Under the pieces are notes generated by a model. It was given only the letters and a program-made list of their open reading frames with translations. It had not been told where the DNA came from and searched no databases. Position numbers and translations under genes: made by a program. A DNA stretch of 64,000 nucleotides, from NCBI RefSeq assembly GCF_003019035.1, contig NZ_CP027447.1, one strand, 5' to 3'. This stretch comes from Escherichia coli. Its GTDB lineage: Bacteria; Pseudomonadota; Gammaproteobacteria; Enterobacterales; Enterobacteriaceae. Positions 2,281 through 16,685 of the stretch are shown here, piece after piece (position 1 is the stretch's first letter; each line of letters starts with the position of its first letter).

Positions 2281-3876
<1,596 letters not shown>

Positions 3877-5771: not shown

Positions 5772-6113
5772 ATGCGCTGTAAAACGCTGACTGCTGCAGC
5801 AGCAGTACTATTGATGTTGACCGCAGGCTGTTCCACTCTGGAGCGAGTGGTTTACCGTCCTGACATCAACCAGGGGAACTATCTGACCGCTAACGACGTA
5901 TCCAAAATACGTGTTGGCATGACGCAACAACAAGTTGCGTACGCATTGGGTACACCGCTGATGTCCGATCCATTTGGTACGAATACCTGGTTCTATGTCT
6001 TCCGCCAGCAACCAGGTCATGAAGGTGTAACGCAGCAAACGCTGACGCTGACCTTTAATAGTAGCGGGGTGTTGACCAATATTGATAATAAACCTGCGCT
6101 GAGTGGTAACTAA
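5772..6113 (+). CDS. bamE: outer membrane protein assembly factor BamE (SmpA) lipoprotein
   Basis: 113 aa; signal peptide with lipobox LTAGC; matches E. coli BamE. Confidence 0.9.
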
Positions 6114-7759: not shown

Positions 7760-8122
7760 GGGGCTGATTCTGGATTCGACGGGATTTGCGAAACCCAAGG
7801 TGCATGCCGAGGGGCGGTTGGCCTCGTAAAAAGCCGCAAAAAATAGTCGCAAACGACGAAAACTACGCTTTAGCAGCTTAATAACCTGCTTAGAGCCCTC
7901 TCTCCCTAGCCTCCGCTCTTAGGACGGGGATCAAGAGAGGTCAAACCCAAAAGAGATCGCGTGGAAGCCCTGCCTGGGGTTGAAGCGTTAAAACTTAATC
8001 AGGCTAGTTTGTTAGTGGCGTGTCCGTCCGCAGCTGGCAAGCGAATGTAAAGACTGACTAAGCATGTAGTACCGAGGATGTAGGAATTTCGGACGCGGGT
8101 TCAACTCCCGCCAGCTCCACCA
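7760..8122 (+). ncRNA. ssrA: tmRNA (SsrA, 10Sa RNA)
   Basis: 363 nt from GGGGCTGATTCTGGATTCGACGGG to GGTTCAACTCCCGCCAGCTCCACCA; contains the tag-peptide ORF region (GCAAACGACGAAAACTACGCTTTAGCAGCTTAA) and a tRNA-like 3' end. Confidence 0.95.
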
Positions 8123-8289: not shown

Positions 8290-9522
8290 ATGCCAAAGGT
8301 AGCAACAAAACTCACTGACACAGAGATCAAAAAGGCCAAGCCCACAGAGAAAGAGTTCACGCTATGGGATGGAGATGGCTTGTTCCTGCGCATCAAACCA
8401 AGTGGCAAAAAAATCTGGCACCTCGGCTATACCGTTCCATTAACCAAGAAACGGGCCAAAATGAGTCTTGGGTTCTATCCCTACCTGACACTTGCTCAAG
8501 CAAGAGCGCTACGGGATGAATACCTCTCTTTGCTTGCACAGGGTATCGATCCCCAATCCCACAATGAGCAAAAAGCCCAAGCGCTTAAAGATGCCACTGA
8601 ACACACATTCCAGACTGTAGCGAAAAAATGGCTTGATGAAAAAATTAAAACATCAGGCATATCGCAAGATCATGCTAAGGATATCTGGCGTAGCCTTGAA
8701 CGGAACATCTTTCCTACTTTAGGGGATGTTCCCATTAAAGAGATCCGCCCTAAAATGTTAAAACAACACCTTGACCCCATAGAACAAAGGGGCGTACTCG
8801 AAACCTTGCGACGTATAATTTCCCGACTTAATGAAATTTTCCGCTATGCCGCGACAGAAGAACTCATTGAGTTCAACCCCGCTGACAACCTTATCCAACG
8901 TTTTAGTAAACCCAAAAAGCAAAATATGCCTGCGTTGCCGCCAGATGAACTACCCCGTTTCATGACAGCATTATCAAACGCATCTATACGCTTAGAAACA
9001 CGTCTACTAATTGAATGGCAACTTCTTACTTGGGTTCGTCCCGGTGAAGCTGTACGCGCTCGCTGGACTGACATAGACGAAGAAAGCAAGTATTGGAACA
9101 TTCCATCCGATTTCATGAAGATGAAACGTCCTCATAAGGTTCCATTGAGCAAAGAAGCTATACGTATTCTTGAATCCATGAAACCAATCAGCGGTCATCG
9201 TGAGTGGGTTTTCCCCAGCATAAAAAATCCTTTAACACATATGCACGAGCAAACTGCCAACGCCGCATTAATCCGAATGGGCTTAGGTGGAGAACTCGTA
9301 GCACATGGCATGCGTTCTATTGCAAGAACAGCAGCAGAAGAAGCAGGAAAATTTAGGACAGAAGTTCTTGAAGCGGCTCTCGCCCACTCAAAAAAAGATG
9401 AAATCATTGCTGCTTATAACCGTACAGAATATTTAGTCGAGCGTGTCGAGTTAATGCAATGGTGGAGTGATTATCTCCAAATACAAAAATATAAGTCTTT
9501 AACAACTCTGATCGCCAGCTAA
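8290..9522 (+). CDS. P4-family tyrosine integrase (IntA-like, but not the CP4-57 IntA sequence)
   Basis: 410 aa; N-terminal LTDTEIKKAKP...LWDGDGLFLRIKPSGKK arm-binding-type domain typical of P4-like integrases; C-terminal AHGMRSIARTAAEE...LAHS catalytic region; sits immediately 3' of ssrA. Confidence 0.85.
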   Translation: MPKVATKLTDTEIKKAKPTEKEFTLWDGDGLFLRIKPSGKKIWHLGYTVPLTKKRAKMSLGFYPYLTLAQARALRDEYLSLLAQGIDPQSHNEQKAQALKDATEHTFQTVAKKWLDEKIKTSGISQDHAKDIWRSLERNIFPTLGDVPIKEIRPKMLKQHLDPIEQRGVLETLRRIISRLNEIFRYAATEELIEFNPADNLIQRFSKPKKQNMPALPPDELPRFMTALSNASIRLETRLLIEWQLLTWVRPGEAVRARWTDIDEESKYWNIPSDFMKMKRPHKVPLSKEAIRILESMKPISGHREWVFPSIKNPLTHMHEQTANAALIRMGLGGELVAHGMRSIARTAAEEAGKFRTEVLEAALAHSKKDEIIAAYNRTEYLVERVELMQWWSDYLQIQKYKSLTTLIAS

Positions 9523-9679: not shown

Positions 9680-10399
9680 ATGGAAGATTTAGTTTGTAGT
9701 TGGTCACCAAAGCTGATCGTTGATCTTATAAAAAGTATCGCTTGGCCAGTAGTCGTCCTTCTCATCGGCTTCAGTTTTCGAACTCGAATTTTTGAAGTGG
9801 CACGTTCATTTTTTTCTAAAAACACAGTTTCAGAAATATCAGCTACAGTATCAGGTGTATCGGCAAAATTTGTGACAGCAAAGCAAACAACTGAAGTATT
9901 AGAAAGTGCTAGTACCAATGCAGCGAATTTACCAAAGAGTATGAGTATTGAGGCTATAAGAGCGCGACATGAACAGCATAAAACAGAATTCAGCGAAGAG
10001 TTATATCAATCAATAATTAAACATGCTTCCTCTTTAGATATTAATAATGATGAAAAAGTCAAAATTCTGGCACGTGAATTGTCTATTTATCAAGCTATAA
10101 TACGATATATTGACATTAATAAGATATTATTTCGCTCACAATACAATTTATTTTGTTCTATAAATAGTAATGGTGGTCAAATAAATAAAGAAGACGCCAA
10201 TCTTTTTTTTGAGGCGACCAAGAACAACAATAAAGAAGCATTCTCCGATTGGGATTGGATTAAATATATTGCCTATCCTGTTAGTAATAGCCTTATCTAT
10301 GAAGATAATAATTTTTATAAACTTACAGAGTTGGGAAGATCGTATATAGCTTTTATGTCAAAAAATCCACAACTAATCGACGAACTTGCAAAATTATAG
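9680..10399 (+). CDS. hypothetical membrane-anchored protein (island cargo)
   Basis: 239-aa ORF, AT-rich codon usage, one N-terminal hydrophobic segment (IAWPVVVLLIGFSF); no recognisable family motif. Confidence 0.5.
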   Translation: MEDLVCSWSPKLIVDLIKSIAWPVVVLLIGFSFRTRIFEVARSFFSKNTVSEISATVSGVSAKFVTAKQTTEVLESASTNAANLPKSMSIEAIRARHEQHKTEFSEELYQSIIKHASSLDINNDEKVKILARELSIYQAIIRYIDINKILFRSQYNLFCSINSNGGQINKEDANLFFEATKNNNKEAFSDWDWIKYIAYPVSNSLIYEDNNFYKLTELGRSYIAFMSKNPQLIDELAKL

Positions 10400-10629
10400 T
10401 AGGGAATAATATTAAACCCTACTCAATGACTGTTTCAGATCTTGGTTCTGTATCCCATAAATGATCAGGTAAAGTCTAAGCGAATAGCGTTTAACAGGTG
10501 GGATGACTCACTACGTGAACCACCCACCTATAAAAAGGGTTTTTCTTCTGGTGAGTTGTCAATAAAAATGAAGGTTTCCACCTTTCATGCGGACCCTCCT
10601 TAATTTTTTTTGACAAGTTGAGATCGAGA

Positions 10630-12729: not shown

Positions 12730-12762
12730 GCACTTATACATTCTTCGAATGTGTGCGCCCCA
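12730..12762 (+). other. candidate MobQ-type origin of transfer (inverted repeat plus nick-site-like GTGCGCCC)
   Basis: ACATTC-ttcg-GAATGT inverted repeat immediately followed by GTGCGCCC, resembling the RSF1010 oriT arrangement (inverted repeat then TAAGTGCG/CCCT nick region); about 140 bp upstream of mobA. Confidence 0.45.
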
Positions 12763-12901
12763 TAAATGGGGGTTTACTAACGCAGAAAAATAAAAAGTAA
12801 TATTCGCTTTATGCTCAATATTACTTAATCGCTTTTCAAAAAAGCAAATATATTTTTATTATTTTAAAAAGTATGTGTTTCAATATCAGGAGATAAAAAC
12901 A

Positions 12902-14203
12902 ATGGCAATATTTCATATGAGCGCTCAAACAATAACACGCAGCAAGGGGTATAGTAGCGTAGCTGCGGCAGCTTATCGCCACGGCGAAAAGTTAACGGAC
13001 GAACACACAGGAGAGATCCACGACTACAGCAAAAAGAAAGGTGTTTCAGACAGTGTTATATTAATACCTGAAAGCGCAGACCGTAATTTTTTAAAGCCTG
13101 CGTATTTATGGAACATGATAGAAAAAAGCGAAAAAAGAAAAGATGCGCAGTTAGCTCGCGAGTTTAATATTGCGCTTCCTGTCGAAATGACAGATGAACA
13201 AAAAAAGGCGTTAGCAATAGATTTTTGCCAAGAGCATTTTGTAAAAAATGGAATGATTGCTGATATAGCTTTTCACAAGCTCGATAGCGACAACCCACAT
13301 TTTCATGTAATGCTAACCACCCGCAGCCTTACGCCGGACGGTTCAGAGTTCGGACATAAAGTCAGGGAATGGAACAACAAAGAGCAGCTCGAAGGCTGGC
13401 GCAAGAGCTGGGCTGACACAGCGAACGAGCACATGCAAAAGGCTGGCATCGATGCGCATATAGATCACAGATCACTGAAAGAACAAAAAGCAGAGCTTGA
13501 CGCTATCCTCCCCCCTCTCAGAACGATTGAGCAAGAGGCGCAGGCTATCAGCTTAGACAGACCGCCGACTATCCATAGAGGCCATAGCCGCAATCCAGAG
13601 CGACAAGCACGCTTTGACGTGCTCCAAGAAGTGAAAGTATCACAAGAGGAAAAAGCACTTAACCACATTGAACAGAAACAACTTAAGCCCTCGCCGCTGG
13701 CTCCAGCTTCCTCCCCTGCCGCATCTTTGCAAGATGCTACACAAGGAGGCAATGAAAACAACCCGCAAAATAGACTCGGCGAAGTTGGCGAATATCTTCA
13801 ATCTAAACTCAATAAAGAAGATAAAGCAGATCTTAATACTGATAATGAAATCAAAGTTCACACTACTAAAAATAATAGGGAAAGCAGTTCAGCAGCAGCT
13901 ATAGGTTCAACATCAAATATTAATTTAACCGATGAGAAAACAGATAAGAATCTACACTTAACAGAAGCACAAAAAGAAGAGTTAGAGGATTTAGAAAATA
14001 AAGAAGCAGCAGCGAAGAAAAAAGCTTATCTGATGAGCGGAGCTGCCGTTCCTGAACTTTCTCAAGATTACAAAACACTGTCAAAAAGTGAGTTTAAAAA
14101 TAAGCTTCATACAGCTAAACAATCAATATCATTAACTGAAAAGAGATTTAATGAAGAATGTGAAGCATATGATAACAGAAGAAAACGACCAATACCGCGC
14201 TAA
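12902..14203 (+). CDS. mobA: MobA/MobL-family (MobQ-type) conjugative relaxase
   Basis: N-terminus MAIFHMSAQTITRSKGYSSVAAAAYRHGEKL is the characteristic MobA/MobL signature; HFHVML histidine motif present; Ser/Glu/Lys-rich low-complexity C-terminus; AGGAG RBS 8 nt upstream of ATG 12902. Confidence 0.8.
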   Translation: MAIFHMSAQTITRSKGYSSVAAAAYRHGEKLTDEHTGEIHDYSKKKGVSDSVILIPESADRNFLKPAYLWNMIEKSEKRKDAQLAREFNIALPVEMTDEQKKALAIDFCQEHFVKNGMIADIAFHKLDSDNPHFHVMLTTRSLTPDGSEFGHKVREWNNKEQLEGWRKSWADTANEHMQKAGIDAHIDHRSLKEQKAELDAILPPLRTIEQEAQAISLDRPPTIHRGHSRNPERQARFDVLQEVKVSQEEKALNHIEQKQLKPSPLAPASSPAASLQDATQGGNENNPQNRLGEVGEYLQSKLNKEDKADLNTDNEIKVHTTKNNRESSSAAAIGSTSNINLTDEKTDKNLHLTEAQKEELEDLENKEAAAKKKAYLMSGAAVPELSQDYKTLSKSEFKNKLHTAKQSISLTEKRFNEECEAYDNRRKRPIPR

Positions 14204-14563
14204 GTATTTTGCTCATTTTTTATCCCCAATGAATGACTTAGCGTTATATTTACTTTAACTAATTGATACTATTGATTTATTTTCACCTCACGTCGTATCG
14301 TTTATATCGATCAAAATCGACAAAGTGATAGTTAACACCTATCACAACCAATTCATCGATCGATTAAAACAATTAATACACCGATCGATAAACGAGATTT
14401 AATCGTTAAAAACTATCAATATTAAATAATTGATCTGTTATAACGATCATTTTGCTTGAGAGTAGCCCTCCTCATGGTATGCTCGGAGCGTGGAAGACCG
14501 GGCTACTCACCTTGATATCTTCTTGATTAAGCAAAACTATCGCTCTATGAGGAATGAAATTTT

Positions 14564-15058
14564 ATGAAAACCGAAAACATTATTTTTCTTGTTTGGGCAG
14601 TGATTTTTATCCTGATTCTCTGCCAACTTTTTTATTTTGGCCCTAAAAAAAGAAGATACCTCAATACTTATATAGAGGTATTAGATGGTGATGTCCTCTC
14701 ATATGAATGTCAAAATACCGGCGTAGTTATTGATACTAAAAAAAACACAGTACGTATTTTCAATACATATAAGGACAGCACTTTCAAATACGACAACATC
14801 AGGGAAATAAATTATACGCTATCCGAAGCCGGAAAAATTTATAGCACAAGTAATAATCTAAACTCTATGATAAAGTCCGCTGGAGCTAACAGTAATGAAC
14901 AAATGTTAGCTAATCAGCGTTCCGGTATTTTTATACTGACAGATGATATAAAAAATCCTTCATGGAAAATCAATCTACCAATGAAAAACAAAACATCATC
15001 TACCAATCAGGAGATCTGCGATCGATGGCTTCTCATTTTTAAAAAATACGTTTTATAA
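14564..15058 (+). CDS. hypothetical membrane-anchored protein
   Basis: 164 aa; N-terminal hydrophobic helix IIFLVWAVIFILILCQLFYF; AT-rich; no recognisable motif. Confidence 0.5.
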   Translation: MKTENIIFLVWAVIFILILCQLFYFGPKKRRYLNTYIEVLDGDVLSYECQNTGVVIDTKKNTVRIFNTYKDSTFKYDNIREINYTLSEAGKIYSTSNNLNSMIKSAGANSNEQMLANQRSGIFILTDDIKNPSWKINLPMKNKTSSTNQEICDRWLLIFKKYVL

Positions 15059-15090
15059 CTTTGTTTTTTATTTTTATCTTTGGAGTTGAC

Positions 15091-15468
15091 ATGAAAAAAT
15101 TGATTGCGGCAGCATTTATTATTCTCCCTTTAGCAAGTTGTACTGTTTATGGAAACAAATCCATTAAAGACGAAACGCAGCAAAATATAGCCTCTAAAAT
15201 TATAAAAGGTAAAACTACTCAAAAAGATATCCTTCAACTTTATGGAGAACCTCAGACTAAAGAAACTAACGATGGTAAAGAAATGTGGGGATATTCCGTT
15301 ATGTCCGGTGAATCTCAGATTTCAAATTACATACCGGGATTAGCGTTATTGAAGAATAGCAGCACAGCGCACATGAAAGAACTTGAGATCTTGTTTAAAG
15401 GTGATGTAGTTGAACGCTATACCTTTAGACAAACGGCAAGCAAAGCTTCTCGCGGGTTGTTAGATTAA
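15091..15468 (+). CDS. putative lipoprotein
   Basis: Start chosen at ATG 15091 (GGAG RBS upstream); signal peptide MKKLIAAAFIILPLASC with lipobox L-A-S-C; 125 aa. Confidence 0.55.
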   Translation: MKKLIAAAFIILPLASCTVYGNKSIKDETQQNIASKIIKGKTTQKDILQLYGEPQTKETNDGKEMWGYSVMSGESQISNYIPGLALLKNSSTAHMKELEILFKGDVVERYTFRQTASKASRGLLD

Positions 15469-16469
15469 TTTAAATTAAATACCATTTTATCTTTAAAAAG
15501 AAGTTGGAATAGTCCGACTTCTTTTCTATTTTATCAATAACATGCATTATTTATATTAGTGCCTTATGAAATGGCACCTTACTTTTTATATTTCCCTATC
15601 TGGGGGTTTAACCTTTGTTTTTTATTAAAAAAAATTTTGTACTAGTAGTACTAATTAATTAATTTAAAAATTTTTGGTTTTAAGGTTTTGGGGTTTGTGT
15701 TTTAGCGGGGCGGCTTTCAGCCGTAGTAGTTTTCCTCCGAAGGAGGAAATAGTTTTTCTTTAAGCATTCCCCCCCTACCCCCCACGCCAAAAAGGCTAAA
15801 AAAGAGAGATAGGAGATGCTCATTGCGTCTTGAAAATATTCAGAACGTTTCCATTCTGATACTTCCCCCACGACCCACGCAAACACAAATCATGAAACTT
15901 TCAAACAACTCTCGTTTTACTAAAGAGTCTATGCTACTGTTTGTAAATTTTTTAGATTGTGCGATTCAGGTTGGCAGCTACGCATATCCCGGTTAACCGC
16001 TGCCGCAATATTCTAAGTTTCACCAAACACTCGATGTCCTTCGTACTTAGACCTTGATACAACAAGGGTAATATTATATTGCTTTTGTAGATTAAATGTT
16101 TCTGGAAATGGTATTGACATTTTATCTATGTCAAAGTCGGCGAAATTTGTTTAATCATGCAGATTAGAGGCTTCTGGAAGTGGTATTTAATATTAGTTAA
16201 AAGTCGACGAAGCATTTCTAATCTTTTGTATCTTTATATTATATAAATCTATATATAACACCAGTCAATAGATGAAATCAAAAATATTTTAAAAACATGA
16301 CTAGATGAAAAACAAAAAAAGACCAGATTAAACCCCAGTCTCTTTTTTACTTAATATCAGTTATGTTTTTCATATATAGTTCTAAAACGCTCTGTACGCG
16401 ATTTTGAGACGTTTTACACTGGAAGCGGCGTAATCATATAAATAATAAAATAGAATACTGTAATGATTT

Positions 16470-16685
16470 TTATGCCGCTTGATTACGCGAATAAAAAATC
16501 TTATCATCAATCCATTCGTCAACTTCACTTTCAACAAATGCGATAGTTCTTTCACCAGTCTTGATCGGAGAAGGGAAATCACCCCGGCTAATCAGCCGAT
16601 AGATCCACGCTTTACAAAAACCAGTCTTGTTTAACACTTCGGGTATGCGGATAAGTCTTTTTCTTTCGTTCATATATTTCCTCAT
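16470..16685 (-). CDS. AlpA-family phage-type transcriptional regulator / excisionase-like DNA-binding protein
   Basis: 71-aa ORF; RIPEVLNKTGFCKAWIYRLISRGDFPSP resembles the AlpA/Xis helix-turn-helix region. Confidence 0.7.
   Translation of the reverse strand: MRKYMNERKRLIRIPEVLNKTGFCKAWIYRLISRGDFPSPIKTGERTIAFVESEVDEWIDDKIFYSRNQAA

Follow-up and report, generated by a model that had tools for sequence, protein, structure and literature searches.

A DUF4755–lipoprotein gene pair of mobilisable enterobacterial islands and its upstream array resembling OxyR/Dam switches

We analysed two adjacent genes, here called ORF A and ORF B (ORF, open reading frame), of a small genomic island in Escherichia coli; they lie within a 64,000-nucleotide stretch of contig NZ_CP027447.1 (hereafter the window). 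Judged by sequence, they are homologues of SEN1983, a DUF4755 gene, and SEN1984, which are catalogued but uncharacterised genes of the mobilisable ROD21/EARL islands. New here are a predicted fold and membrane topology for DUF4755, the finding that relatives of the lipoprotein are distributed as prophage morons and, above all, a conserved non-coding array upstream of the pair that is built like the regulatory regions of gtr and opvAB. Our best account, to which we give about even odds, is that the pair serves a mobilisable island as an envelope module with bistable expression, in which the lipoprotein excludes phage or remodels the cell surface and the PH-like protein is an accessory.

Results

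ORF A (14564–15058, plus strand; ATG at 14564, stop codon at 15056–15058) encodes 164 amino acids, with a single hydrophobic helix at about residues 6–25 that is followed by GPKKRRY. ORF B (15091–15468, plus strand; ATG at 15091, stop codon at 15466–15468) encodes a 125-residue lipoprotein; its N-terminus, MKKLIAAAFIILPLASC, contains the lipobox LASC, with Cys17 and Thr at +2, and direct reading of the sequence places a ribosome-binding site of its own, GGAG (15082–15085, plus strand), 5 nt 5′ of the ATG. A mechanical list of ORFs starts ORF B at TTG 15061; all homologues, however, are 125 amino acids long. A terminator scan found an intrinsic-terminator-like hairpin of 13 pairs followed by a T run (15496–15525, plus strand), which ends the two-gene unit. 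An earlier reading of this DNA (the sequence-only reading) had described an inner-membrane protein gene, with an N-terminal transmembrane (TM) helix, and an adjacent gene for an exported lipoprotein in a mobile island. That description holds, down to the protein lengths, lipobox and ribosome-binding site; the spacing, which it had put at 33 bp, is in fact 32 nt from the stop of ORF A to the start of ORF B.

Both ORFs are genuine genes under purifying selection and not chance reading frames. ORF A matches Pfam DUF4755 (PF15947) at 45.3 bits against a cut-off of 27 (residues 41–160, profile positions 7–127 of 129), ORF B matches phrog_3135 of PHROGs at E 1e-28, intact orthologues of both are found in many genera, and dN/dS against E. 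coli PigCaeca_1 is as low as 0.145 for ORF A and 0.092 for ORF B. A near-identical version of the pair occurs in 4 of 5426 complete E. coli genomes, and the EARL-type pair in 404 of them.

The published gene list of ROD21 runs SEN1980 (MobQ), SEN1982 (lipoprotein), SEN1983 and SEN1984 (PMC3198454; PMC10655114). SEN1983 (488 bp) is annotated there as 'exported protein' and is a pseudogene in that ROD21 strain, and SEN1984 is 378 bp long (PMC3198454); Phyre2 gave SEN1984 similarity to BamE and nothing further (PMC10655114). ORF B is 68% identical to a Salmonella island lipoprotein whose gene comes immediately after a DUF4755 gene, which is the position of SEN1984 in ROD21, and over ten loci with the same synteny the identity is 68–74%. 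The name 'SEN1984 family lipoprotein' is already used in one RefSeq record.

We looked up the context of the pair in Klebsiella oxytoca, Klebsiella sp., Yersinia, Salmonella, Brenneria, Affinibrenneria, Samsonia and Escherichia, including CFT073. All share one order, namely a TraD-like gene, MobQ, variable cargo, a divergent gene for a lipoprotein of 176–184 amino acids, DUF4755, the 125-residue lipoprotein gene and further cargo, with genes for type IV pilin, an H-NS-like protein and AlpA in the neighbourhood. The cargo flanking pair-carrying islands is variable and defence-related (ApeA, TIR/SIR2, reverse transcriptase). Of the EARL hallmarks, the window island has the P4-like integrase and AlpA (both by Pfam), the latter 51–58% identical to AlpA of EARL loci; it is not inserted at an Asn-tRNA gene, and a search of its ORFs (ORF list, Pfam) revealed neither a pilin nor a TraD-like protein. 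It is therefore a reduced relative of the EARL islands and not a canonical member.

The conserved non-coding array upstream of ORF A (14253–14455) contains five OxyR-type half-sites (ATAGnTnnnAnCTAT), at 14297–14311, 14328–14342, 14359–14373, 14402–14416 and 14433–14447, which score 8/10, 10/10, 8/10, 9/10 and 7/10, respectively, and five GATC sites, starting at 14309, 14358, 14383, 14432 and 14445. Eight bp after the last half-site a consensus scan places a promoter-like site on the plus strand (14456–14483), with TTGAGA, 16 nt and a TG-extended TATGCT (TGgTATGCT). No other 160-bp stretch of the window has five half-sites and five GATC sites. Four of the half-sites score 8/10 or better, whereas the figure for dinucleotide shuffles is 0.33, and none of 500 shuffles reached four. 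The array is conserved in E. coli, Yersinia, Samsonia, Salmonella, Klebsiella, Brenneria, Acerihabitans, Pectobacterium and Dickeya; its five GATC sites and dyad arms are invariant in 11 to 19 loci from at least eight genera. Mean identity to the window is 0.76 in the array, as against 0.47 just downstream and 62–76% in coding DNA, and the TGgTATGCT −10 element is kept in the Yersinia, Brenneria and Samsonia lineages. Among the 5426 complete E. coli genomes, 592 (about 11%) carry the array, CFT073, 536 and Nissle 1917 being three of them. Genes for envelope proteins always flank it.

We compared the array with known OxyR/Dam-controlled loci. Its four promoter-proximal dyads are spaced by 31/43/31 bp with qualities of 10/8/9/7; the corresponding figures for opvAB are 32/41/32 and 10/8/10/7 (PMC4856963). 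The first dyad is identical to ATCGTTTATATCGAT in the agn43 operator of K-12, and the last carries two GATC sites 13 bp apart, the distance of the GATC pair in gtr half-sites (PMC2909390). The array can be aligned with the regulatory region of P22 gtr over a segment that takes in OxyR(B), the spacer and OxyR(C), with a score of 99 against 59±7 for shuffles (maximum 86; z 5.6), and the array copies of CFT073 and KFu023 score 112 and 106. With at least three half-sites at the spacing expected for reduced OxyR, and GATC sites in or next to them, upstream of a promoter-like site, the array has the sequence make-up of an OxyR/Dam switch, and most probably is one. In the compact island of the window, the DUF4755–lipoprotein unit is its only possible target.

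We think it rather unlikely that the array has a role unconnected with OxyR. Such a role would suit its occurrence in islands with a different relaxase family and different downstream genes, including another small island type that lacks the pair and has the array beside a divergent gene for a 95-residue lipoprotein; the number of dyads, five, also exceeds the three of gtr and four of opvAB, and the methylome of CFT073 gives an OxyR/Dam switch no support. It would not explain why one dyad is an exact 10/10 match to the OxyR consensus and invariant across genera, why one is identical to a dyad of the agn43 operator, or why the alignment with gtr extends to the closely spaced GATC pair. The window island, moreover, encodes no recognisable regulator besides AlpA, and its oriT-like site lies elsewhere, upstream of the relaxase gene.

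Other identities of the array were tried and ruled out: it is not an oriT, given the position of the oriT-like site and the array's occurrence with a different relaxase family; its GATC spacings (49, 25, 49 and 13 bp) are no helical multiples, as opposed to SeqA-type spacing; and its units are dyads and not direct repeats, as opposed to iterons. A perfect 9-bp inverted repeat, GAGTAGCCC (14460–14468) and GGGCTACTC (14500–14508) with a 31-nt loop, overlaps the predicted promoter and the 5′ leader of ORF A. This repeat is confined to the island lineage of the window, other genera having no conserved counterpart. The intergenic region after the cargo gene (10311–10490) has a second and smaller cluster, in which three OxyR-like half-sites that score 7/10 or better occur with three GATC sites. 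ROD21 excision increases with peroxide; we found no literature linking this to OxyR.

On the other side of the array, the divergent gene always encodes a lipoprotein, either SEN1982-like (176–184 amino acids) or a 95-residue version with a similar signal peptide, and is followed by a gene for a 91-residue membrane protein (loci L045, 2159–2446 and 1872–2147; L014, 8525–9055; L038, 6365–6895). The whole array-flanking cluster therefore encodes envelope proteins; the window island has lost this left arm.

The membership of ORF A in DUF4755 is confirmed by its relatives, 23 of 27 of which match the family when aligned (best E 2e-60). The close subfamily (at least 50% identity) consists of 62 proteins, all from Enterobacterales, and occurs in 4 of about 100,000 species-representative genomes. 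More distant members are either TM-less, with 113–149 amino acids (hmmsearch E 1e-19 for one), or have a two-TM hairpin; these variants, together with KKRR after the single TM helix of ORF A, argue that the DUF4755 domain is cytoplasmic. When they were included in the alignment, AlphaFold gave a model with a predicted local distance difference test score (pLDDT) of 87.7 and a predicted template-modelling score of 0.78; an earlier run with close homologues only was unusable (pLDDT 51). In the model, eight strands are interrupted by a long inserted helix and followed by a C-terminal helix that bears an invariant Trp; it shows the partly open β-sandwich of 7–8 strands with a C-terminal helix that defines the PH-like superfold. 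On this model, DUF4755 is a cytoplasmic PH-like domain tethered to the inner membrane by one TM helix. A sequence search of solved structures found nothing for DUF4755, no DUF4755 member matches the Pfam bPH families by sequence, and we found no mention of DUF4755 in the literature.

ORF B itself falls below every Pfam threshold. Its membership of the BamE/SmpA_OmlA superfamily appears through its relatives, 62 of 73 of which match Pfam BamE (PF04355) when aligned, and through the family profile, which hhalign matches to E. coli BamE with 92% probability (E 6e-7); a sequence search of solved structures gave weak BamE matches only (E 0.06–0.1). Orthology to BamE proper fails on an identity of 22% and an insertion of 14 residues with a conserved, family-specific NYIPG motif. 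The true bamE gene lies elsewhere in the window (5772–6113), so ORF B is a mobile paralogue and not BamE; from its sequence, it is best described as a divergent BamE-domain paralogue. The lipobox is authentic, Cys17 being nearly invariant among the 73 relatives. Under the Lol sorting rule, Thr at +2 predicts an outer-membrane lipoprotein, and this is the location predicted for ORF B.

An exhaustive search for relatives of ORF B returned 578 cluster representatives of 125–135 amino acids. Among 80 viral contigs with relatives, the gene is co-oriented with and shortly downstream of a cI-type repressor gene in 29, most commonly at about 50 bp; in about 36 it is a moron between the major tail and tape-measure genes, and 7 are island-type loci. 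Lambdoid prophages have repeatedly acquired relatives of ORF B as morons, placed either directly after cI or ahead of the tape-measure gene. Further relatives are carried by 133 plasmids, 100 of which are typed as conjugative, mostly from Burkholderia.

Two other settings of the lipoprotein family were noted. A paralogue of 128 amino acids (38% identity; gene at 8001–8387 in L015–L019), found in more than 7000 contig-index blocks, is a backbone gene of another very common enterobacterial island. That island encodes two or three tyrosine recombinases together with AlpA and DUF6387, and the cargo on its flanks includes Kiwa, Abi_2, OLD-like and kinase genes. On a Burkholderia glumae plasmid (L020, 6935–13666), the BamE-like gene is co-oriented with genes for a DsbD-N-domain protein and a YadA-like trimeric autotransporter, which hints at a role in adhesin biogenesis in that lineage.

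Bor and TraT are examples of lipoproteins that confer serum or host resistance, and a BamE-like lipoprotein might likewise be a fitness or virulence conversion factor for the bacterial host, modulating the BAM complex, envelope stress or serum and host resistance. A BAM subunit has this same fold, the module is present in the uropathogenic strains CFT073 and 536 and in Nissle 1917, and phase-variable envelope proteins are typical of host interaction. Furthermore, ROD21 aids organ colonisation and mutants in the neighbouring SEN1982 lipoprotein gene are attenuated (PMC10655114). No phenotype of SEN1984 or SEN1983 was found reported in the literature, however, the lipoprotein gene is a pseudogene in CFT073, and plant pathogens, environmental Enterobacterales and phages of several hosts carry the family just as commonly. 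This breadth argues for a general and not a host-specific role, and we regard conversion of this kind as plausible, though unlikely.

We also considered whether the two genes belong together at all. Eleven of 11 independent loci with TM-anchored DUF4755 have a lipoprotein gene or its remnant 31–58 bp downstream on the same strand, and the two genes have one upstream region and one terminator in common. Both observations speak against unrelated neighbours joined only by the synteny of the island backbone, of which the PH-like protein would serve the island or the membrane and the lipoprotein would act independently. Other observations suit such a reading better. The soluble domains reside in different compartments; one island variant has a gene for a TM-less DUF4755 protein with two unrelated genes between it and the lipoprotein gene; and distant DUF4755 genes of plasmids have no lipoprotein gene after them. 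Loss and decay are also independent: islands of Pectobacterium and Dickeya have the lipoprotein without DUF4755, the DUF4755 gene is a pseudogene in ROD21, SCU-301 and NIPH17_0020, and the lipoprotein gene is frameshifted in CFT073. Neither gene is therefore essential to the island, nor is joint action required. We consider it improbable, more so than a host-directed role, that the two are wholly unrelated. Their pairing is conserved synteny, probably with co-transcription; the lipoprotein-only islands, the independent pseudogenes and the separate compartments rule out an obligate two-component device. DUF4755 was absent from the phage collection, so that there is no paired occurrence in phages. 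One candidate for a paired function there, ORF58 of Klebsiella phage RAH1, lies upstream of a phage lipoprotein gene and was rejected because it is not DUF4755-like.

The island inserts at ssrA (transfer-messenger RNA, tmRNA; 7760–8122, plus strand), which was identified by ARAGORN, Rfam and the RefSeq annotation of a near-identical locus, and has a G+C content of 35.6% against about 50% in the E. coli chromosomal flanks. It is about 8.5–9 kb long, and runs from a P4-type tyrosine integrase gene (8290–9522, plus strand; Pfam Arm-DNA-bind_3, Phage_int_M and Phage_integrase) through a variable cargo slot, six small minus-strand ORFs, a MobQ-family relaxase gene (12875–14203, plus strand; NCBIfam MobQ, 254 bits against a cut-off of 200, and Pfam MobA_MobL) and the pair to a gene for an AlpA-family excisionase or regulator at the far end (16470–16685, minus strand; Pfam Phage_AlpA, E 5e-18, and PHROGs excisionase families). 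No mating-pair-formation or type IV secretion genes were found among the island ORFs (ORF list, Pfam), and the island is therefore an integrative mobilisable element. A search for att direct repeats at its ends gave a single match, of 10 nt, between ssrA (8099) and 16817. An Rfam scan of the island found tmRNA and no other RNA family.

The sequence-only reading had proposed that the pair, an inner-membrane protein and an exported lipoprotein next to a relaxase gene, recalls entry or surface exclusion or immunity genes, while conceding that no motif confirmed this. The concession was correct, as Pfam and NCBIfam give no match to TraS, TraT, TrbK or Eex. The profile searches it had called for assign ORF A to DUF4755 and the ORF B family to the BamE-like proteins, neither of which is a known exclusion family. 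Adjacency to the relaxase gene is true of the window; in the larger relatives variable cargo and the divergent lipoprotein gene intervene, and the adjacency here is an accident of the compact island.

A TraS/Eex-like and TraT/TrbK-like pair that blocks re-entry of the same or a helper element is very unlikely, even though the architecture of inner-membrane protein and outer-membrane lipoprotein recalls traS–traT of F, the element is mobilisable with a relaxase gene next door, relatives of the lipoprotein occur on the conjugative-typed plasmids, and the cytoplasmic domain alone is no bar, since the SXT exclusion protein Eex acts through a cytoplasmic segment: there is no homology to any exclusion family and no adjoining mating-pair-formation gene but a relaxase only, DUF4755 is cytoplasmic and the lipoprotein periplasmic or in the outer membrane, decay of the one gene is independent of decay of the other, prophages often carry members of the lipoprotein family although phages do not conjugate, and on the Burkholderia plasmid that we examined the neighbours of the gene are PLD, zeta-toxin, DsbD and YadA-like genes, so that it is not in a traG–traS–traT position. 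EARL islands are mobilisable and not conjugative (PMC6035254), and both they and the window island need helper plasmids (PMC6035254, PMC3976249). What does stand of the earlier proposal is that an exclusion-like lipoprotein of the envelope is plausible, in view of the prophage relatives.

Some further features of the island were recorded. The cargo slot of the window (9680–10399) encodes a protein of 239 amino acids with an N-terminal hydrophobic segment, as it does in SCU-301, and in PigCaeca_1 (L002, 9502–11100) a protein with a reverse-transcriptase domain; this slot, which separates the integrase gene from the small minus-strand ORFs, is probably a hotspot for defence cargo. Upstream of the MobQ gene lies an oriT-like site, with an inverted repeat of ACATTC (12738–12743) and GAATGT (12747–12752) and then GTGCGCCCC (12753–12761). 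We take this site (12738–12761) to resemble the nic region of RSF1010, GTGCGCCCT. Between the terminator after the lipoprotein gene and alpA, a 70-bp non-coding stretch (16049–16115) is 80% identical to part of an otherwise different small island type (L045 and L046, about 3296–3371).

Discussion

The above results identify the pair as part of the backbone of a widespread family of mobilisable islands, in which it has been catalogued but not characterised. We suggest that it would work as follows. Transcription would start just 3′ of the array of OxyR half-sites and Dam GATC sites. Since the array is built like the gtr and opvAB switches and can be aligned with them, the unit is probably bistable, giving ON and OFF lineages. 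From the periplasmic side, the lipoprotein may act on an outer-membrane component, and the resulting change of the cell surface might exclude an incoming phage or some other attack on the envelope. Cor and Llp, lipoproteins that lysogens express, exclude phage by changing the cell surface. An envelope-level role of the exclusion or immunity type is plausible as a best guess for ORF B by analogy, because its relatives sit downstream of cI or as morons in the tail region. The PH-like protein would be a dispensable accessory and not an obligate partner.

Several points weigh against this account. Each of the two genes is a pseudogene or absent in some lineages, and relatives of the lipoprotein are found on plasmids in contexts unrelated to exclusion. 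Neither ORF A nor ORF B matches a PADLOC defence model or a known exclusion protein. The presence of the array in an island type without the pair means that its target may be a different one, or may be the divergent lipoprotein gene. The promoter is a consensus match only, and the sequence between array and start codon differs between lineages. In the methylome of CFT073, three or more adjacent unmethylated GATC sites were seen only upstream of Ag43 and a TonB receptor (PMC4752239), and the array is not among the sites in its table. We also found no published functional work on SEN1983, SEN1984 or their homologues, and no relevant paper on the CFT073 locus tags c2401, c2402 and c2403.

A bolder version, which we put forward as a long shot, combines all of these elements: an undescribed but functional OxyR/Dam switch on the islands would make envelope proteins bistable, and a BamE mimic acting on BAM or an outer-membrane receptor would create a phage-resistant subpopulation, the same trick being used by lambdoid prophages with the cI-linked gene. 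Short of this, the SEN1984-type lipoprotein belongs to a large BamE-like family that prophages express from their immunity regions, and might represent a new class of factors for exclusion or conversion at the envelope. If functional, the array would add a mobile and widely distributed locus to the few OxyR/Dam phase-variable systems, and a switch of this kind could help to explain the heterogeneous behaviour of these pathogenicity islands.

Relation to known systems

The closest relatives of the module are those of the ROD21/EARL islands, including the tcpC island of CFT073, which have the orthologous pair in the same order and orientation, with amino-acid identities of 57–77% for DUF4755 and 68–74% for the lipoprotein. 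The conserved array upstream, the MobQ relaxase, the P4-type integrase and the AlpA-type excision factor are common to the window island and EARL. The window island, however, is at ssrA and the EARL islands at an Asn-tRNA gene, and it is without EARL's type IV pilin, TraD-like, H-NS-like and divergent SEN1982-like lipoprotein genes; as a result, the array abuts the end of its relaxase gene.

The bacterial PH-like (bPH) domain membrane proteins include YdbS and YdbT. Like these, modelled DUF4755 has a PH-like β-sandwich capped by a C-terminal helix with a conserved Trp, and is tethered at the cytoplasmic face by N-terminal TM helices, one or two in number. It differs from bPH in the long helix between strands (residues 99–119) and in having no Pfam bPH match. 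ORF B, for its part, has the domain and approximate size (110–125 amino acids) of the lipoprotein BamE (SmpA/OmlA), but is only distantly identical to it (22%), has the 14-residue NYIPG insertion and is carried by mobile elements and phages. Cor (of phi80, N15 and HK022) and Llp (of T5) are also small outer-membrane lipoproteins of mobile elements and are expressed in the resident cell, and the phage relatives of ORF B occupy classic moron positions; ORF B, however, has no sequence similarity to them and a different fold, and is a candidate only for an exclusion role.

In F, TraS in the inner membrane and TraT, an outer-membrane lipoprotein, are likewise encoded by adjacent genes of a transferable element. 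The pair described here differs in having no homology to them and no type IV secretion system, in the independent loss of its genes, and in its inner-membrane protein, which is predicted to be a single-pass anchor with a cytoplasmic PH-like domain and not polytopic.

The array, finally, resembles gtr (P22, Salmonella), opvAB and agn43 in having OxyR half-sites with embedded GATC upstream of a promoter, and horizontally acquired envelope genes downstream. It has five half-sites and five GATC sites, in contrast to the three half-sites of gtr and the four of opvAB. Its function as a switch is predicted from sequence, and it resides on mobilisable islands, mostly between divergent genes.

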